Origin: Clostridia bacterium
GTDB lineage: Bacteria > Bacillota > Clostridia > Oscillospirales > CAG-272
Length of the DNA stretch: 64,000 nt
Assembly (NCBI GenBank): GCA_017537175.1
Contig: JAFYLH010000012.1
Location: 65,375 to 129,374 of the forward strand
Direction of reading: 5' to 3'
Part shown: positions 590-47,419 of the stretch, one piece after another
How the letters are laid out: every line of letters starts with the position of its first letter
How positions within the stretch are numbered: position 1 is the first letter of the stretch
Position numbers and translations under genes: made by a program
The notes under the pieces: generated by a model
The model's input: only the letters and a program-made list of their open reading frames with translations
Database searches by the model: none
What the model was told of the DNA's origin: nothing

Positions 590-3500
590 ATGGCAATGAC
601 AAAAAGAGTGATATCATTATTGATGACCGTGGTAATGCTGATAGGAGTATCAGCCTTCGCCCTTCCTGTCAATGCCGCCGAGAGCTGCACGATTATATTT
701 GATGCCAACGGCGGTACAGGTGTGGGAATGCCCGAAAATATTACGGTAGATGCGGGAACTATAATCACACTTCCTGCAAGCTCACCCACAAAACCGGGAA
801 TGGTTTTTAGAGGTTGGGCATTCAGCAAAGAGGATGCCGACAACGGTGTTATTACCTATGCGGCAGGCACAACTCCTCAGATCCACGTAAACAACGGAGC
901 AATACTTTATGCTTCCTATGCATATTCGGTAGTTCTCAACCACGGTAACCGCGGCTGGGGTAATGCCGCAGTTCAGCTCTATAAATTCCCGGGTAAGGAC
1001 CTTGAGCTCTATCACAAAAAGGACCTGATCCAGCAGAATTACGGAATGCTCCCCGGTGCTTCGGGAGAGACCACCAACCTTATGGTATTTATGGAGTGGA
1101 ACACCTCTCAGGCATTTAACGGTTTAGGTGACGGCATAGGCTATCACGAAAGATATACCACCAATGCATCGACTACTCTTTATTGCATCTGGGGTAATCC
1201 TGTTGCCTACAACGCCAACGGCGGTACATTCCCCGCAACAGGCACAGACCGCCAGTCAAAGTACGTTGTAAACTGGAGTATAAACCGTCACGATGATACC
1301 ACCTTCGGTCTGTTTGATTTTCCGGATGAAGAAAACTCACCCGTAAAGGACGGCTGCCGTCTCTATACCAACGAAGCGGGCGAGACCGTTTATGCAAGAG
1401 TATTCTTGAACGGCAATATATACCGCTATGAGTCGGATGACAGCTGGCTTGATATGCCTATATTCAACGGCCCCGGCTATAAGTGGGAGGATTTTTATAC
1501 CTATATTCTGCCCATAGACGAAAGAGCGCTTGAGCTTTATGCAATTTGGGAGCCCTCTGTTACATACAAGGCTAACGGCGGCAAGGGTGCTGACATAGTT
1601 GAGTATATGGAGCATATAGGCCCTACACTTTTCAGCTATGCAGATTATACCGTACGTAACAATTCTTTTGTAAACGACGGACGTTTTCTCGGCTGGAATA
1701 CCAAGCCTGACGGCAGCGGCGAGAGCTACGAGGCAGGTCAGGTGATCACAGACTATGACACAAGCGAGCCTATAATTCTTTATGCTCAGTGGTCTGATGG
1801 CTGTGAAGCAAAGGAATATACCGTAACCTTTAATGCAATGGAGGGTTATCTCCCCTTTGAAGCGCAGAGCTTTGAAATAGCTTACGGCGAGAGCTTCAAG
1901 GATGCCTTTGAGCTTCCCATACCCACAAGATCGGGGTATCTCTTTAAGGGTTGGTATAACGAAGAAACAGAGTCTTATCTTAATTATGCAGATGAAATCT
2001 ACTCATTAGACCGTGACAGCGTTTATACAGCAGAGTGGGTGCGTCATGATAATCACTATATCGAGGACTTCAAAGTAGAGTCCACCTGTATGACCGAGGG
2101 CAGCTACACCTCTTACTGTACTACCTGTGATTATTACAATACCATTACTTACGGCAAGGTAGAACATACCTTCACCGACTGGAATTATGTAGGCGATACA
2201 AATCTTGTTGTAAGAAGCTGTACACTTTGCGGTGCAAGTGAAAATGACGAGATCCCTCCGTCGGTACAGCAGCAGGTAATTGCTTACTGTAACAAGAATG
2301 TAGCATACAAGGATGTGGATTTCCCCTATATCGATGTTCTCAATTACCTCGGCCCCGCAATCGACGGTGGTCCCGGTGAATATCCCTTCCAGGAGTCCTA
2401 CTTTGGTGAGGCTGCCTATATGAGAAAGGTAGCAACTGCAAAGAACCCCAATATCAAAATAGTTTGTACAGTCTTTAACAGAAACATAGTTAAGTTTGAA
2501 AATTGGCTGAGAACTCCCGCATCCCGTGCCGAGTTTGCAAACCACCTGACAGGCGTTGTATTTGCAAATAACTTTGACGGTCTTGATATCGACTTTGAGT
2601 TCCCGTCGGATCTGTCTCTGCGTGACGAATATGCACTTCTCTTGGGTGAGATCAGAGCAAGATTCAATGCAAAGACCGCACAGACAGGCAGACAGTATAT
2701 ACTGAGTATCGCTACTCCCGCAGCCCATTGGGCAACAGAAAAATTTGACCTTGTTGCCTGCGCTCAGTATCTTGACTACTTTAACATAATGAACTACGAC
2801 CTCTATTGCGGCTCGGCGGTTCCTTATACACATCACCATACACCTCCCTTTGACAATATCGACCCCTACGGACACGTTCCCACAGGCGGCTCTGTTCAGG
2901 GTGATATCAATATGTACAAGGCTCTTGGTATCCCCGGAGAAAAGATAGTTTCGGGTATGGGTCTTTATTCAAGAGAGTGGCAGGGCGTTCCCAACCGTAA
3001 CAACGGTCTCTTCCAGCCCGCAGCACTCCAGGCAAGTAACTATCACTATGACCTGCTTTTGGCATCCTTTGTTAACCGTAACGGCTATGTCCGTTACTGG
3101 GACGATACCTCAAAGGCACCTTATCTCTTTAACGCAGGAGCAGGTATATTCCTCTCCTACGAGGACCCCGAATCCATTAACTATAAGTGTCAGATAGTTT
3201 CAAAGGAAAGAGTCCGCGGTGTTATGGTATTTGACTACGTAACCTGCGACGGTACCGGAATATTTGCACATATAAGAAATCAGCTGGGCTCTGTGCTTCA
3301 CGCCTGCACACCCGGCAGAACCGAGACAAAGGCGGCAAGCTGCAGTGAAAACGGCTATACCAAGACCTACTGCTATTTCTGTGAAGCCCTTATCAAGCAT
3401 ACCGAGGTATACCACGAGGGTCATTATGCCACCGACTGGACTGTAGTTACCCCCGCAACAAAGGGTAGCGCCGGTATAGAAGAGGCAATATGCCTTAACT

Positions 3501-6744: not shown

Positions 6745-7041
6745 ATGGCTAATAAAACAGCAAACGTAACTGCGAGGGTAAATCCCGAAGTCAAAAGACA
6801 AGCCGAAGAAGTATTACAGCAGCTCGGTGTTCCGGTTTCGGTTCTGATCGATTCGCTATACCGTCAGATCATTATGACCAACAGCATACCTTACTCTTTT
6901 GCGCTTAACACATTACCGACCCGTGATACTATGACGGACGCACAGTTTGATCGGATGATGGCAAAGGGCTTGGAGCAGGCAAAGAACGGACAGGGTGTAA
7001 GTCTGAGTGACGCTTTCTCTGAGATAAACGACAATATTTGA
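6745..7041 (+). CDS. Type II antitoxin, RelB/DinJ family, 98 aa
   Basis: N-terminal ANVTARVNPEVKRQAEEVLQQLGVPVSVLIDSLYRQI matches the DinJ/RelB ribbon-helix-helix pattern; the next gene starts 1 nt after its stop. Confidence 0.8.
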   Translation: MANKTANVTARVNPEVKRQAEEVLQQLGVPVSVLIDSLYRQIIMTNSIPYSFALNTLPTRDTMTDAQFDRMMAKGLEQAKNGQGVSLSDAFSEINDNI

Positions 7042-7042
7042 T

Positions 7043-7357
7043 ATGAAAGTTAATTTAACCGACCACGCCGTTGAACAGTTGAAAAATATCGTATGGTATA
7101 TTTCTAAAGTTCTTTTGGAACCCGAGACGGCGAAACGAGTGTCGAAAAGGATCGAGGATGAAATTTCCTCACTTGATCATATGCCTTACCGTTATCCTCT
7201 TGTAACCGAGGAGCCTTGGCGAACGCAAGGAATACGCAAAACAACGGTGAAAAATTTTATAGTTTACTATTGGATCGACGACGACAATTCTACGGTTTGG
7301 GTCACGGCGGTTGTATATGGCAGAAGGGATCAGATATCCGCTTTGAGAAATATGTAA
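7043..7357 (+). CDS. Type II toxin, RelE/ParE family, 104 aa
   Basis: About 100 aa, directly follows the antitoxin; ...IVYYWIDDDNSTVWVTAVVYGRRDQ C-terminal pattern typical of ParE/RelE toxins. Confidence 0.8.
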   Translation: MKVNLTDHAVEQLKNIVWYISKVLLEPETAKRVSKRIEDEISSLDHMPYRYPLVTEEPWRTQGIRKTTVKNFIVYYWIDDDNSTVWVTAVVYGRRDQISALRNM

Positions 7358-18104: not shown

Positions 18105-19373
18105 ATGGCTAACGAAAACAACACAAAAAACACACCCTACCGTTGTTCCTTTTGCGGCAGAGAAGAGAAGGATGTGCTTTTCCTTATTCCTTCTCCCGTC
18201 AACAGAGGTACATTTATATGTAACGACTGTGTGGATGCCTGCACCGAGCTTCTCGGTGACTATGCTCCCGAGGCTGTAAAGACCTCGGATGGCGGTAAGC
18301 TGACCTACGAGACACTTCCCAAGCCCGTAGCTATCAAGGCTACCCTTGACGAATATGTTATCGGACAGGATGCGGCAAAAAAGGCATTGGCGGTAGCGGT
18401 ATACAATCACTATAAGCGTATCCTTTCCAAGGACAGGAAAAAAGATGACGACGGTGTGGAGATACAAAAGAGCAATGTTCTGCTCCTTGGCCCTACAGGT
18501 GTGGGTAAGACCTTCCTTGCTCAGACATTGGCAAAGACCCTCAAGGTTCCCTTTGCCATAGCCGATGCCACCACTCTTACCGAGGCAGGCTATGTGGGTG
18601 AGGATGTAGAGAACATATTGCTGCGCCTTATTCAGGCGGCTGATTTTGACATCGAGCTTGCAGAGAAGGGTATCATCTATATCGACGAGATCGACAAGAT
18701 CTCCCGTAGAAGTGAAAACCGCTCCATCACCCGTGATGTATCAGGTGAGGGCGTTCAGCAGGCACTTTTAAAGATACTTGAGGGAACGGTATCAAATGTT
18801 CCTCCTCAGGGCGGCCGTAAGCATCCCAACCAGGACTTTATACAGATCAATACCGAAAACATCCTCTTTATCTGCGGCGGTGCCTTTGACGGTATCTCCG
18901 AGATAATCGAGAAGCGCAAGGGCAGCGGCTCTATGGGCTTTGGCGCAGAGGTAAAGACAAAGCAGGATAAGCAGCAGACCGCTATCTACAAGGATGTAGG
19001 CCCCCACGATATTATGAAGTACGGACTTATCCCCGAGCTTGTGGGCCGTCTGCCTCTTATAGTAGGCCTTGAGGGACTTGACCGCGATGCTCTTGTACGC
19101 ATCTTAAGAGAGCCCAAAAATTCACTTATCAAGCAGTACAAAAAGCTGTTCGGTATGGATAATATGGAAATAGAGTTTACCGACGAGGCTCTTTACAAGG
19201 TGGCAGATCTTGCTATAGAGCGTAATATCGGTGCAAGAGGTCTGCGCTCCATTATGGAGGAGATGATGCTCACAATGATGTATGAGCTTCCCTCAAAGAC
19301 CGAGGTCAAAAAGGCCATCGTTAACGAAAAGGTGGTTACGGGCGAGGGCGAGCCTGAGCTTATAACAGAATAA
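18105..19373 (+). CDS. clpX: ATP-dependent Clp protease ATP-binding subunit ClpX
   Basis: N-terminal zinc finger CSFCG...CNDC, Walker A GPTGVGKT, conserved ClpX body. Confidence 0.95.
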
Positions 19374-19375
19374 TA

Positions 19376-19410
19376 AAATGTCCTGTGACACGATGTATCA
19401 CAGGACATTA
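19376..19410. repeat. Left copy of a 35-bp direct repeat that is itself a terminator hairpin (clpX terminator)
   Basis: AAATGTCCTGTGACACGATGTATCACAGGACATTA; 34/35 identical to 19743-19777. Confidence 0.85.
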
Positions 19411-19711
19411 CAGACTGTCGAAAAAGTCGGTCGGCCGTGTGGGGCAAGTTGCCCCTGCCATACTACGCGCTGTAGGACATTGGACATTTATCATAAAAAA
19501 CACGACACAACGCAAAAAGCATCTTACCAATATGGAAAGTTATTATTATAATGACTATATCTCCCAATATAGTCTGATAAGTATTCAAAAGTGGTGTATA
19601 CATCGAGTATACACCACTTCTTCACACTTTCCCGCGAAAAGGGTCACTACCGTACTTAGTACGCCTACGGACCCTTTTCACGAAAACCGACACTTCCTTT
19701 TTCGAAGTCTG
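19411..19711 (+). mobile_element. MITE-like non-coding element, copy 1 (301 bp) with CAGACT(G)TCGAAAAAG / CTTTTTCGAAGTCTG terminal inverted repeats
   Basis: TIRs read directly; blocks shared with 47156-47396 include a 13-bp-stem hairpin (19589-19619) and CTACCGTACTTAGTACGCCTACG. Confidence 0.75.
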
Positions 19712-19742
19712 CCAGCGTGTCGATAGGTTTATCGACACGCTG

Positions 19743-19777
19743 AAATGTCCTGTGACACGATGTGTCACAGGACATTA
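19743..19777. repeat. Right copy of the 35-bp hairpin direct repeat; overlaps the 3' end of the 19765-21039 gene
   Basis: AAATGTCCTGTGACACGATGTGTCACAGGACATTA; perfect 13-bp stem. Confidence 0.85.
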
Positions 19778-47155: not shown

Positions 47156-47396
47156 CAGACTTCGAAAAAGTCGGTCGGGCGTGTTAAATAAATATATCTT
47201 TGGTTTATTACCCCAACCAACAGACAGTGATCAAATATTTATCATTGCTCCCAATAAAGTCAGATAAGCATTCAAAAGTGGTGTATACATCGAGTATACA
47301 CCACTTTTTCACACTTTACCGCCAAATCCTCTCTACCGTACTTAGTACGCCTACGAGAAGATTTGACGGCAACCTACCTTCCTTTTTCGAAGTCTG
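47156..47396 (+). mobile_element. MITE-like non-coding element, copy 2 (241 bp) with perfect 15-bp terminal inverted repeats CAGACTTCGAAAAAG
   Basis: TIRs read directly; shares hairpin AAGTGGTGTATAC-ATCGA-GTATACACCACTT (47276-47306) and the CTACCGTACTTAGTACGCCTACG core with copy 1. Confidence 0.75.
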
Positions 47397-47419
47397 CAGG
47401 GAGTTTTTTAAACTCCCTG
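47397..47419 (-). terminator. Hairpin at the 3' end of the cysteine desulfurase gene (stop codon in the loop)
   Basis: CAGGGAGTTT-TTT-AAACTCCCTG directly abutting the right TIR of the element. Confidence 0.5.

Follow-up and report, generated by a model that had tools for sequence, protein, structure and literature searches.

A putative hairpin-targeting MITE family with a folded internal module in uncultured Clostridia

Two element copies in a clostridial contig

The analyzed window, a stretch of 64,000 nucleotides from a Clostridia bacterium contig (JAFYLH010000012.1), contained two copies of a short element bounded by inverted repeats, hereafter referred to as class A (Table 1). The first copy was located between clpX and a convergently oriented gene of 424 aa, with the duplicated terminator described below on its two sides. 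A profile search of the window with nhmmer detected no third copy. The two copies had their ends in common (CAGACT(G)TCGAAAAAG / CTTTTTCGAAGTCTG), and both carried the perfect 13-bp hairpin AAGTGGTGTATAC-ATCGA-GTATACACCACTT; the 31-nt hairpin and the 23-nt core were each found exactly twice in the window, with an expectation of zero in shuffled sequences. A first-pass annotation made by reading the DNA letters had already quoted the two copies together with their inverted ends, the 13-bp hairpin and the 23-nt core, all of which were recovered in place. Pairwise alignment also agreed with its account of about 30 shared bases at the left, a shared block of about 130 nt at the right and a middle segment unrelated between copies. 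The conserved left end of copy 1 extended to approximately position 19440.

The only good promoter-like match within copy 1 (TTACCA-17-TATAAT, 19524-19552, plus strand) was rejected as an internal promoter, since it lies in the copy-specific middle segment and is not kept in other copies. An open frame of 113 codons also runs through copy 1 (19385-19726, plus strand); it is specific to this copy, the frame being closed in the other family members, and could lead to the annotation of a spurious protein at this position. Elsewhere in the window, Pfam marks on the matching contig indicated a RelB/ParE-type toxin-antitoxin pair at approximately 6745-7357, amid housekeeping genes.

Features of the copy 1 locus that were absent from the earlier annotation and were added by the present analysis are a hairpin designated H and a target-site duplication formed by the clpX terminator. 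The segments 19376-19410 and 19743-19777 form a 35-bp direct repeat with one mismatch, which was scored as terminator-like. The arms of H are similar to the element ends (CAGnnTGTCGA), and H adjoined most class-A copies and was never solitary in the examined sequence. The mobile unit of copy 1 is 19411-19742, H included; the 301-bp MITE of the earlier description stood, but the unit that moves is longer than had been noted. Copy 2 had neither H nor a duplicated hairpin.

Table 1. Positions of the class-A copies, of their parts and of related elements. Coordinates are those of the window unless a collected locus (L number) is named.
Feature	Coordinates	Strand	Description
clpX	18105-19373	+	upstream neighbour of copy 1
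Left target-site duplication, copy 1	19376-19410	+	palindromic intrinsic terminator 3' of clpX, AAATGTCCTGTGACACGATGTATCACAGGACATTA
Copy 1, class-A element	19411-19711		301 bp; begins CAGACTGTCGAAAAAG, ends CTTTTTCGAAGTCTG
Left terminal inverted repeat (TIR), copy 1	19411-19426	+	CAGACTGTCGAAAAAG; present in every complete family member
Variable middle, copy 1	19441-19575		about 60 extra bases found in copy 1 only
Hairpin 1, copy 1	19587-19621	-	13-bp stem (19589-19619), A and T tracts alongside
Helix 2, first arm, copy 1	19629-19645	-	TTCCCGCGAAAAGGGTC
Apical core, copy 1	19647-19669	-	23 nt, CTACCGTACTTAGTACGCCTACG; internal hairpin CGTAC-TTA-GTACG
Helix 2, second arm, copy 1	19670-19686	-	GACCCTTTTCACGAAAA
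Right TIR, copy 1	19697-19711	+	CTTTTTCGAAGTCTG
Hairpin H	19713-19742	.	30 bp, CAGCGTGTCGATAGGTTTATCGACACGCTG; one base beyond the right end of copy 1
Right target-site duplication, copy 1	19743-19777	+	second copy of the terminator hairpin
Convergent gene, 424 aa	19765-21039	-	downstream neighbour of copy 1
Copy 2, class-A element	47156-47396	+	241 bp, perfect 15-bp inverted ends
Hairpin, copy 2	47276-47306
Helix 2, copy 2	47315-47332 with 47356-47373
Core, copy 2	47333-47355
Terminator-like hairpin	47397-47419	+	CAGGGAGTTTTTTAAACTCCCTG; directly adjoins the right end of copy 2
48-nt insertion sites in class-A copies	L008 8-56; L011 8-56; L026 3893-3935; L048 4699-4747
Class B			about 190 bp, from Christensenella-like MAGs; imperfect ends (about 28 bp) of its own, GGAGCGTCCCATGCACGTTGCTTT ... 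GCCACTCC
Class C	L064 (RHMF01064646.1), about 1250-1600	-	same core, unrelated helix, then hairpin GGCGAGGGCGTAAAGCCCGTCGCC

Spread, mobility and target sites of the class-A family

In order to collect the family, one genome per species was scanned with the 23-nt core as query. The scan resulted in 53 loci, spread over about 10 MAGs of uncultured gut and rumen Clostridia and Christensenellales, and 35 loci in 7 MAGs belonged to class A, the element type of the window copies. For many loci the nearest contig end was only 40-170 bases away, which is the expected pattern for a dispersed repeat. Class-A elements were typically about 243 bp long (range 231-301 bp), their TIRs of 15-16 bp, CAGACT(G)TCGAAAAAG, were conserved across all complete copies, and no reading frame was open across them. 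They were located between gene 3' ends; the gene upstream lay on the plus strand in 19/23 cases, the one downstream on the minus strand in 20/26.

Direct repeats of 22-35 bp, with at most one mismatch, flanked the unit in 12 of the 19 distinct complete class-A loci elsewhere, and in the duplication-bearing loci the unit (element, one nucleotide and H) measured 257-287 bp. The repeats differed from locus to locus, and each was a near-perfect palindrome set between an A tract and a T tract, that is, the local intrinsic terminator; their ends were symmetric about the dyad, 0-4 bases from the limit of complementarity. Palindromic targets differing in both sequence and length, as expected of structure-directed insertion, were present at no fewer than 12 loci. 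Copies devoid of H (copy 2 of the window, L023 and L048) showed no duplication, an observation that counts against the model of duplicative insertion into hairpins presented below. At two loci (L017 and L026) the flanking hairpins were diverged or loop-flipped between the two sides. Those of L017 (element at 1027-1271) differ by a loop inversion, TTTT on one side and AAAA on the other, which is the signature of a template-switch mutation in a palindrome. The variable stems were also considered as a possible guide to the target, a candidate that was rejected because the stems, when compared by eye with the flanking terminator, bore no resemblance to it.

Exact empty sites were sought through the proteins flanking both window copies, and this search returned only identical, element-carrying strains. 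A locus without the element was reached through ClpX homologues (L069, ClpX 93% identical): the same convergent gene pair was present there with a single hairpin (AAGGACGGAATTTATTCCGTCCTT) and no element. As the sequence of this hairpin has diverged, the locus shows the pre-insertion architecture, not an exact empty site. The same hairpin (L069 2766-2790) matches the loop-less hairpin 1 of another locus (L005, AAGGACGGCATTTATGCCGTCCTT) at 22 of 24 bases, a likeness that is either a coincidence or the trace of an element remnant.

The proposal in the first-pass annotation that the segment is a MITE was borne out by multiple copies in at least 7 MAGs, inverted ends, the lack of a conserved ORF, target duplications and an empty orthologous site; class A is a non-autonomous DNA transposon that has been mobile. 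Two further loci, from assemblies of other samples and with a ClpX identical to that of the window (L054 4307-4640 and L072 20480-20840), carried a chimeric element, whose left half was that of copy 1 and whose right half came from another copy (helix CCAAGCCGTCT/AGTCGGCTTG, core variant ...GCCGACG). Downstream there was a different terminator hairpin and then an Ldh gene in place of the 424-aa gene of the window, which looks like a strain-level rearrangement via recombination between copies. Class A not only breaks MAG assemblies but also appears to mediate rearrangement among strains, with the same clpX followed by different downstream genes. As a separate observation, four class-A copies, each at another locus and from two MAGs in all, carried a 48-nt palindromic insertion (GGTTGGGGTTCCCCGAAACGAGCTTGTCGAGTTTTGGGGGTTCCGAACC) within the right arm (Table 1). 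The insertion is the marker of a subfamily that spread after gaining it, and may be a tiny mobile element on its own.

No transposase gene with class-A ends was detected in about 0.5 Mb of loci, in plasmid, phage and viral collections, or in the annotated part of the window, roughly two thirds of its length, across which the earlier statement that the window holds no transposase was upheld. An all-against-all comparison of the ORFs of at least 200 aa from every locus yielded only orthologues and paralogous housekeeping genes, with no transposase among them. Neither blastn of copy 2 against plasmid and phage collections nor scans of viral contigs with the core and with the left end returned any match, and a literature search with both orientations of the 13-nt palindrome retrieved no publication.

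Pairing, strand and apical core of the folded module

The right-hand portion of the element, of about 135 nt, constitutes a folded module made up of hairpin 1 and helix 2. A helix enclosing the core had been described for copy 1 (GAAAAGGGTC/GACCCTTTTC, 10/10 pairs) and copy 2 (AAATCCTCT/AGAAGATTT, 8/9 pairs), and this pairing was confirmed; the helix is nevertheless longer than had been noted, with about 17 pairs in copy 1 (19629-19645 with 19670-19686). Adjoining its first arm, A 19646 is bulged. Over all classes, every one of the 45 distinct arm-core-arm combinations folded into a long helix capped by CGUAC-UUA-GUACG, so that the helix seen in the two window copies was kept in the further copies as well. 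The inner stem occurred in 17 class-A variants as GGGTC/GACCC, GGCTC/GAGCC, GCCTC/GAGGC, GTCTC/GAGAC, GACTC/GAGTC and TGGTC/GACCA, and intermediates with a single mismatch were also present.

In the structure specified for helix 2, 91.6% of the cells paired and seven pairs were changed on both sides, while controls with slid partners paired in 26-50% of cells. The covariation score was 0.121 vs. 0.048 in shuffles, and none of the 500 shuffles reached it. In the alignment, changes on both sides were found at 10 of the 15 pairs of hairpin 1 and at three pairs of H. The stem of hairpin 1 was hypervariable between copies and its loop (ACATCGAGT) conserved, and variability was in general 3-4 times higher in stems than in loops and linkers. 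The stems of the module are fast-evolving yet paired, and its loops and linkers constant. The folding of all arm combinations and the covariation relative to shuffles substantiate the claim, made in the first-pass annotation, of a selected structure as opposed to mere decay, although the strand that folds is most likely not the one originally read.

On the plus strand, helix 2 contained 59 C.A/A.C cells vs. 6 G.U cells, and the number of distinct G.U positions was 19 on the minus strand vs. 6 on the plus strand. As a consequence of these one-sided mismatches, the class-A helix pairs better on the minus strand (98.5% of cells, 29 of them G.U) than on the plus strand (91.6%, 2 G.U). The folding energy of copy 1 was also lower for minus than for plus (-87.1 vs. 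-69.4 kcal/mol). Folding therefore most likely takes place on the minus strand of the window, in the form of RNA or of single-stranded DNA. No promoter was conserved across copies on either strand, and any RNA product is putative. The Rfam search of the whole window gave no hits at the gathering score; at E<=10, copy 1 matched only microRNA-type noise on perfect hairpins and a class-B locus matched nothing, so that a known ncRNA family, one of the matches that the first-pass annotation had named as refuting its reading, did not turn up.

The 23-nt core also caps helices in two further MITE-like families with unrelated ends, classes B and C (Table 1). In class B it sits on a GCGAAAAC/GTTTTCGC helix, and reciprocal sites were found for this class, filled in L051 and empty in L063. 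The possibility that class B represents a gene end (TnpB, IscB or another gene) was rejected, given that the neighbouring ORFs are unrelated from locus to locus. Class B also occurred as head-to-tail tandem pairs (L002 4009-4385 and L057 6237-6613), and downstream of the element in L032 / L061 a short remnant of end sequences only was present, at one locus. The class-C insert lies between diverged repeats of about 70 bp that comprise the 3' end of a PPDK-like gene and its terminator. Since the collection scans used the core as query, its invariance is in part due to ascertainment; 22 of its 23 bases were still kept in L054 and in diverged neighbours found by proximity (L003+7644, L004+5020 and L002+4324). 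Two class-B copies were broken at the same point of the core, after CTACCGTAC: in L022 (3486-3784) 108 unrelated bases stand in place of TTAGTACGC, and L058 (323-466) lacks the right half. These breaks may be due to a fragile hairpin tip, to insertion targeted at hairpins or to a specific nuclease.

Several readings of the module other than the one that we favour were weighed against this evidence. It could be the gene of a trans-acting small RNA, either a riboregulator or a protein sponge, for which the MITEs would be mere carriers; the 23-nt tip would then be the recognition loop, and the minus-strand transcript would end at hairpin 1 followed by a U tract. Conserved loops, covarying stems, G.U pairs biased to one strand and the same tip in three element families with unrelated ends all suit a small RNA, and hairpin 1 followed by UUUU on the minus strand would form a terminator. 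Upstream of the module on that strand, however, there is no conserved promoter, the space being taken up by H, the element end and the terminator copy, and there is no Rfam match either, so that we regard this reading as rather unlikely.

A second possibility is that the core hairpin is a site of cleavage or recombination in single-stranded DNA (an HUH-type nick or a recombinase crossover), with movement via the core instead of the ends. Its tip is highly conserved, its folding is strand-specific, G.T pairs are tolerated in single-stranded DNA too, and the two independent class-B copies are broken at one and the same core position. Such breaks, however, would also be expected from the fragility of palindromes or from hairpin-targeted insertion by a similar transposase. 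Moreover, each element has a single core, 40-80 nt inside its boundary, insertions are delimited by the inverted ends and target duplications, and no recombinase gene is linked to the elements, which makes this reading very unlikely.

The location nearly always between gene 3' ends (19/23 upstream genes on plus, 20/26 downstream genes on minus) and the several strong hairpins per unit, two of them followed by T tracts, would also be in accordance with terminator or insulator cassettes retained by the host, similar to REP/BIME and selected for blocking read-through or for 3'-end stability. A need for termination, however, does not account for the invariant 23-nt tip or the conserved linkers, the duplicated hairpins already provide terminators, and the copy-number spread and contig-breaking repeats indicate selfish amplification; we give this explanation, too, a low probability. 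Finally, a decaying transposon relic, with palindromes arising by chance or as mutational by-products, would fit the unconstrained middle segment and the truncated or recombined state of some copies, but is scarcely credible, as it is contradicted by compensatory changes at many pairs together with single-mismatch intermediates, by the 45 folding arm combinations, by the covariation statistics, by the pairing of 91.6% of cells vs. 26-50% in slid controls and by stems more variable than loops.

Proposed mechanism and comparison with known systems

Class A is probably a MITE that seeks out hairpins, duplicates terminators and contains a folded module that is under selection and specific to one strand. 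According to this model, a transposase supplied in trans would read the hairpin or cruciform structure of the target, not its sequence, and the element ends would be joined at the two feet of the extruded palindrome. Joining at the feet would in turn lead gap repair to copy the whole hairpin. Both convergent genes would thus keep a terminator and the insertion would be nearly harmless, a safe-landing strategy in which the terminator hairpin is copied on insertion. Palindromes of 22-35 bp duplicated symmetrically about the dyad would represent natural evidence for extruded hairpins as transposase targets.

The folded module may function in single-stranded form, RNA or DNA, and be required in cis for the propagation or tolerance of the copies, and its 23-nt tip would be a putative binding site for a shared factor. 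A conserved folded module whose tip recurs in three MITE families suggests an as yet undescribed host or transposase factor in these uncultured gut and rumen Clostridia. In the parental IS, the module would have been adjacent to the left end, and an autonomous partner would be expected to be bounded by CAGACTGTCGAAAAAGTCGG and its complement. A more specific and unlikely role is that of a putative RNA or single-stranded DNA cofactor bound by the hairpin-seeking transposition machinery; if this were true, the machinery would recognize folded nucleic acid and not sequence, in the target (any terminator palindrome) as well as in the donor signal.

With bacterial MITEs such as Correia/CREE, RUP, ERIC and MITEAba12, class A shares a small size, the lack of coding capacity, multiple intergenic copies, inverted ends, target duplications and mobilisation in trans. 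The duplications of those elements, in contrast, are short and fixed (TA, or up to 9 bp), and to our knowledge none of them duplicates a whole hairpin of variable length or has an apical motif common to families with different ends. REP/REPIN sequences and their RAYT enzymes resemble class A as non-autonomous palindromic extragenic repeats that form hairpins at gene 3' ends and spread within genomes. REPINs, however, are doublets of one short conserved palindrome that depend on an HUH enzyme (RAYT) and produce no target duplication, whereas the flanking hairpins of class A are locus-specific copies of the target and its ends are classical inverted repeats. The inverted ends, the duplications and the single core hairpin per element likewise set class A apart from HUH systems of the IS200/IS605 or REP/RAYT type.

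Cas1-Cas2 and casposon integration proceeds by staggered attacks at the borders of a part-palindrome of about 14-37 bp, and gap repair duplicates the segment. A palindromic segment is duplicated on integration in these systems and in class A alike; theirs, however, is one fixed repeat or target used with Cas1, whereas the class-A palindrome differs at each locus, and no cas1 gene was linked to class-A elements. Integron attC sites provide a parallel for the module, given that they are recognized as a folded single strand, with conserved structure, variable sequence and preference for one strand. The arrangement is nonetheless different, since in attC the conserved bases lie at the hairpin foot and the middle varies, while the class-A tip is conserved and the stem varies; in addition, no integrase or cassette array is found at class-A elements.

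DDE transposases of the IS1182 type are known under the Pfam names DDE_Tnp_1_6 and DUF772, and the direct repeats listed in ISfinder for the IS1182 family span 0-60 bp. Given this range, duplication of whole hairpins may exist in the family unremarked. An annotated IS1182 element was sought in pBtoxis (1-50 kb) for comparison of the ends and none was found; as no transposase was found for class A, any link to the family is one of behaviour only. IS1272 and TnSha1, IS1182-family elements of staphylococci with a DDE transposase, recognize their targets by structure; these are palindromic hairpins of 21-85 bp, mostly terminators, which are unrelated in sequence and lie just 3' of genes (PMC5678879, PMC4923244). 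On insertion of IS1272 the target hairpin is lost wholly or in part and no duplication arises, and IS1272L bears an additional end repeat (PMC5678879, PMC4923244). A cruciform-foot model was drawn for IS1272 as 'pathway b' by Wan et al. 2017, with whole-hairpin duplication as a possible outcome (PMC5678879, PMC4923244), for which no documented case was found in the literature.

Class A differs from IS1272 in that it duplicates the hairpin that IS1272 deletes, which counts against the hairpin-seeking model, and a deletion-like outcome at the target was seen only for H-less class-A copies and class B. It differs also as a non-coding element of 243 bp compared with an autonomous one of about 1.9 kb, and by its folded internal module, since none comparable has been described for IS1272. 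On the other hand, both have short inverted repeats and hairpin targets directed by structure and not by sequence, and the extra end repeat of IS1272L parallels H. The structure-dependent hairpin targeting of IS1272 and TnSha1 is the closest known behaviour to that of class A.
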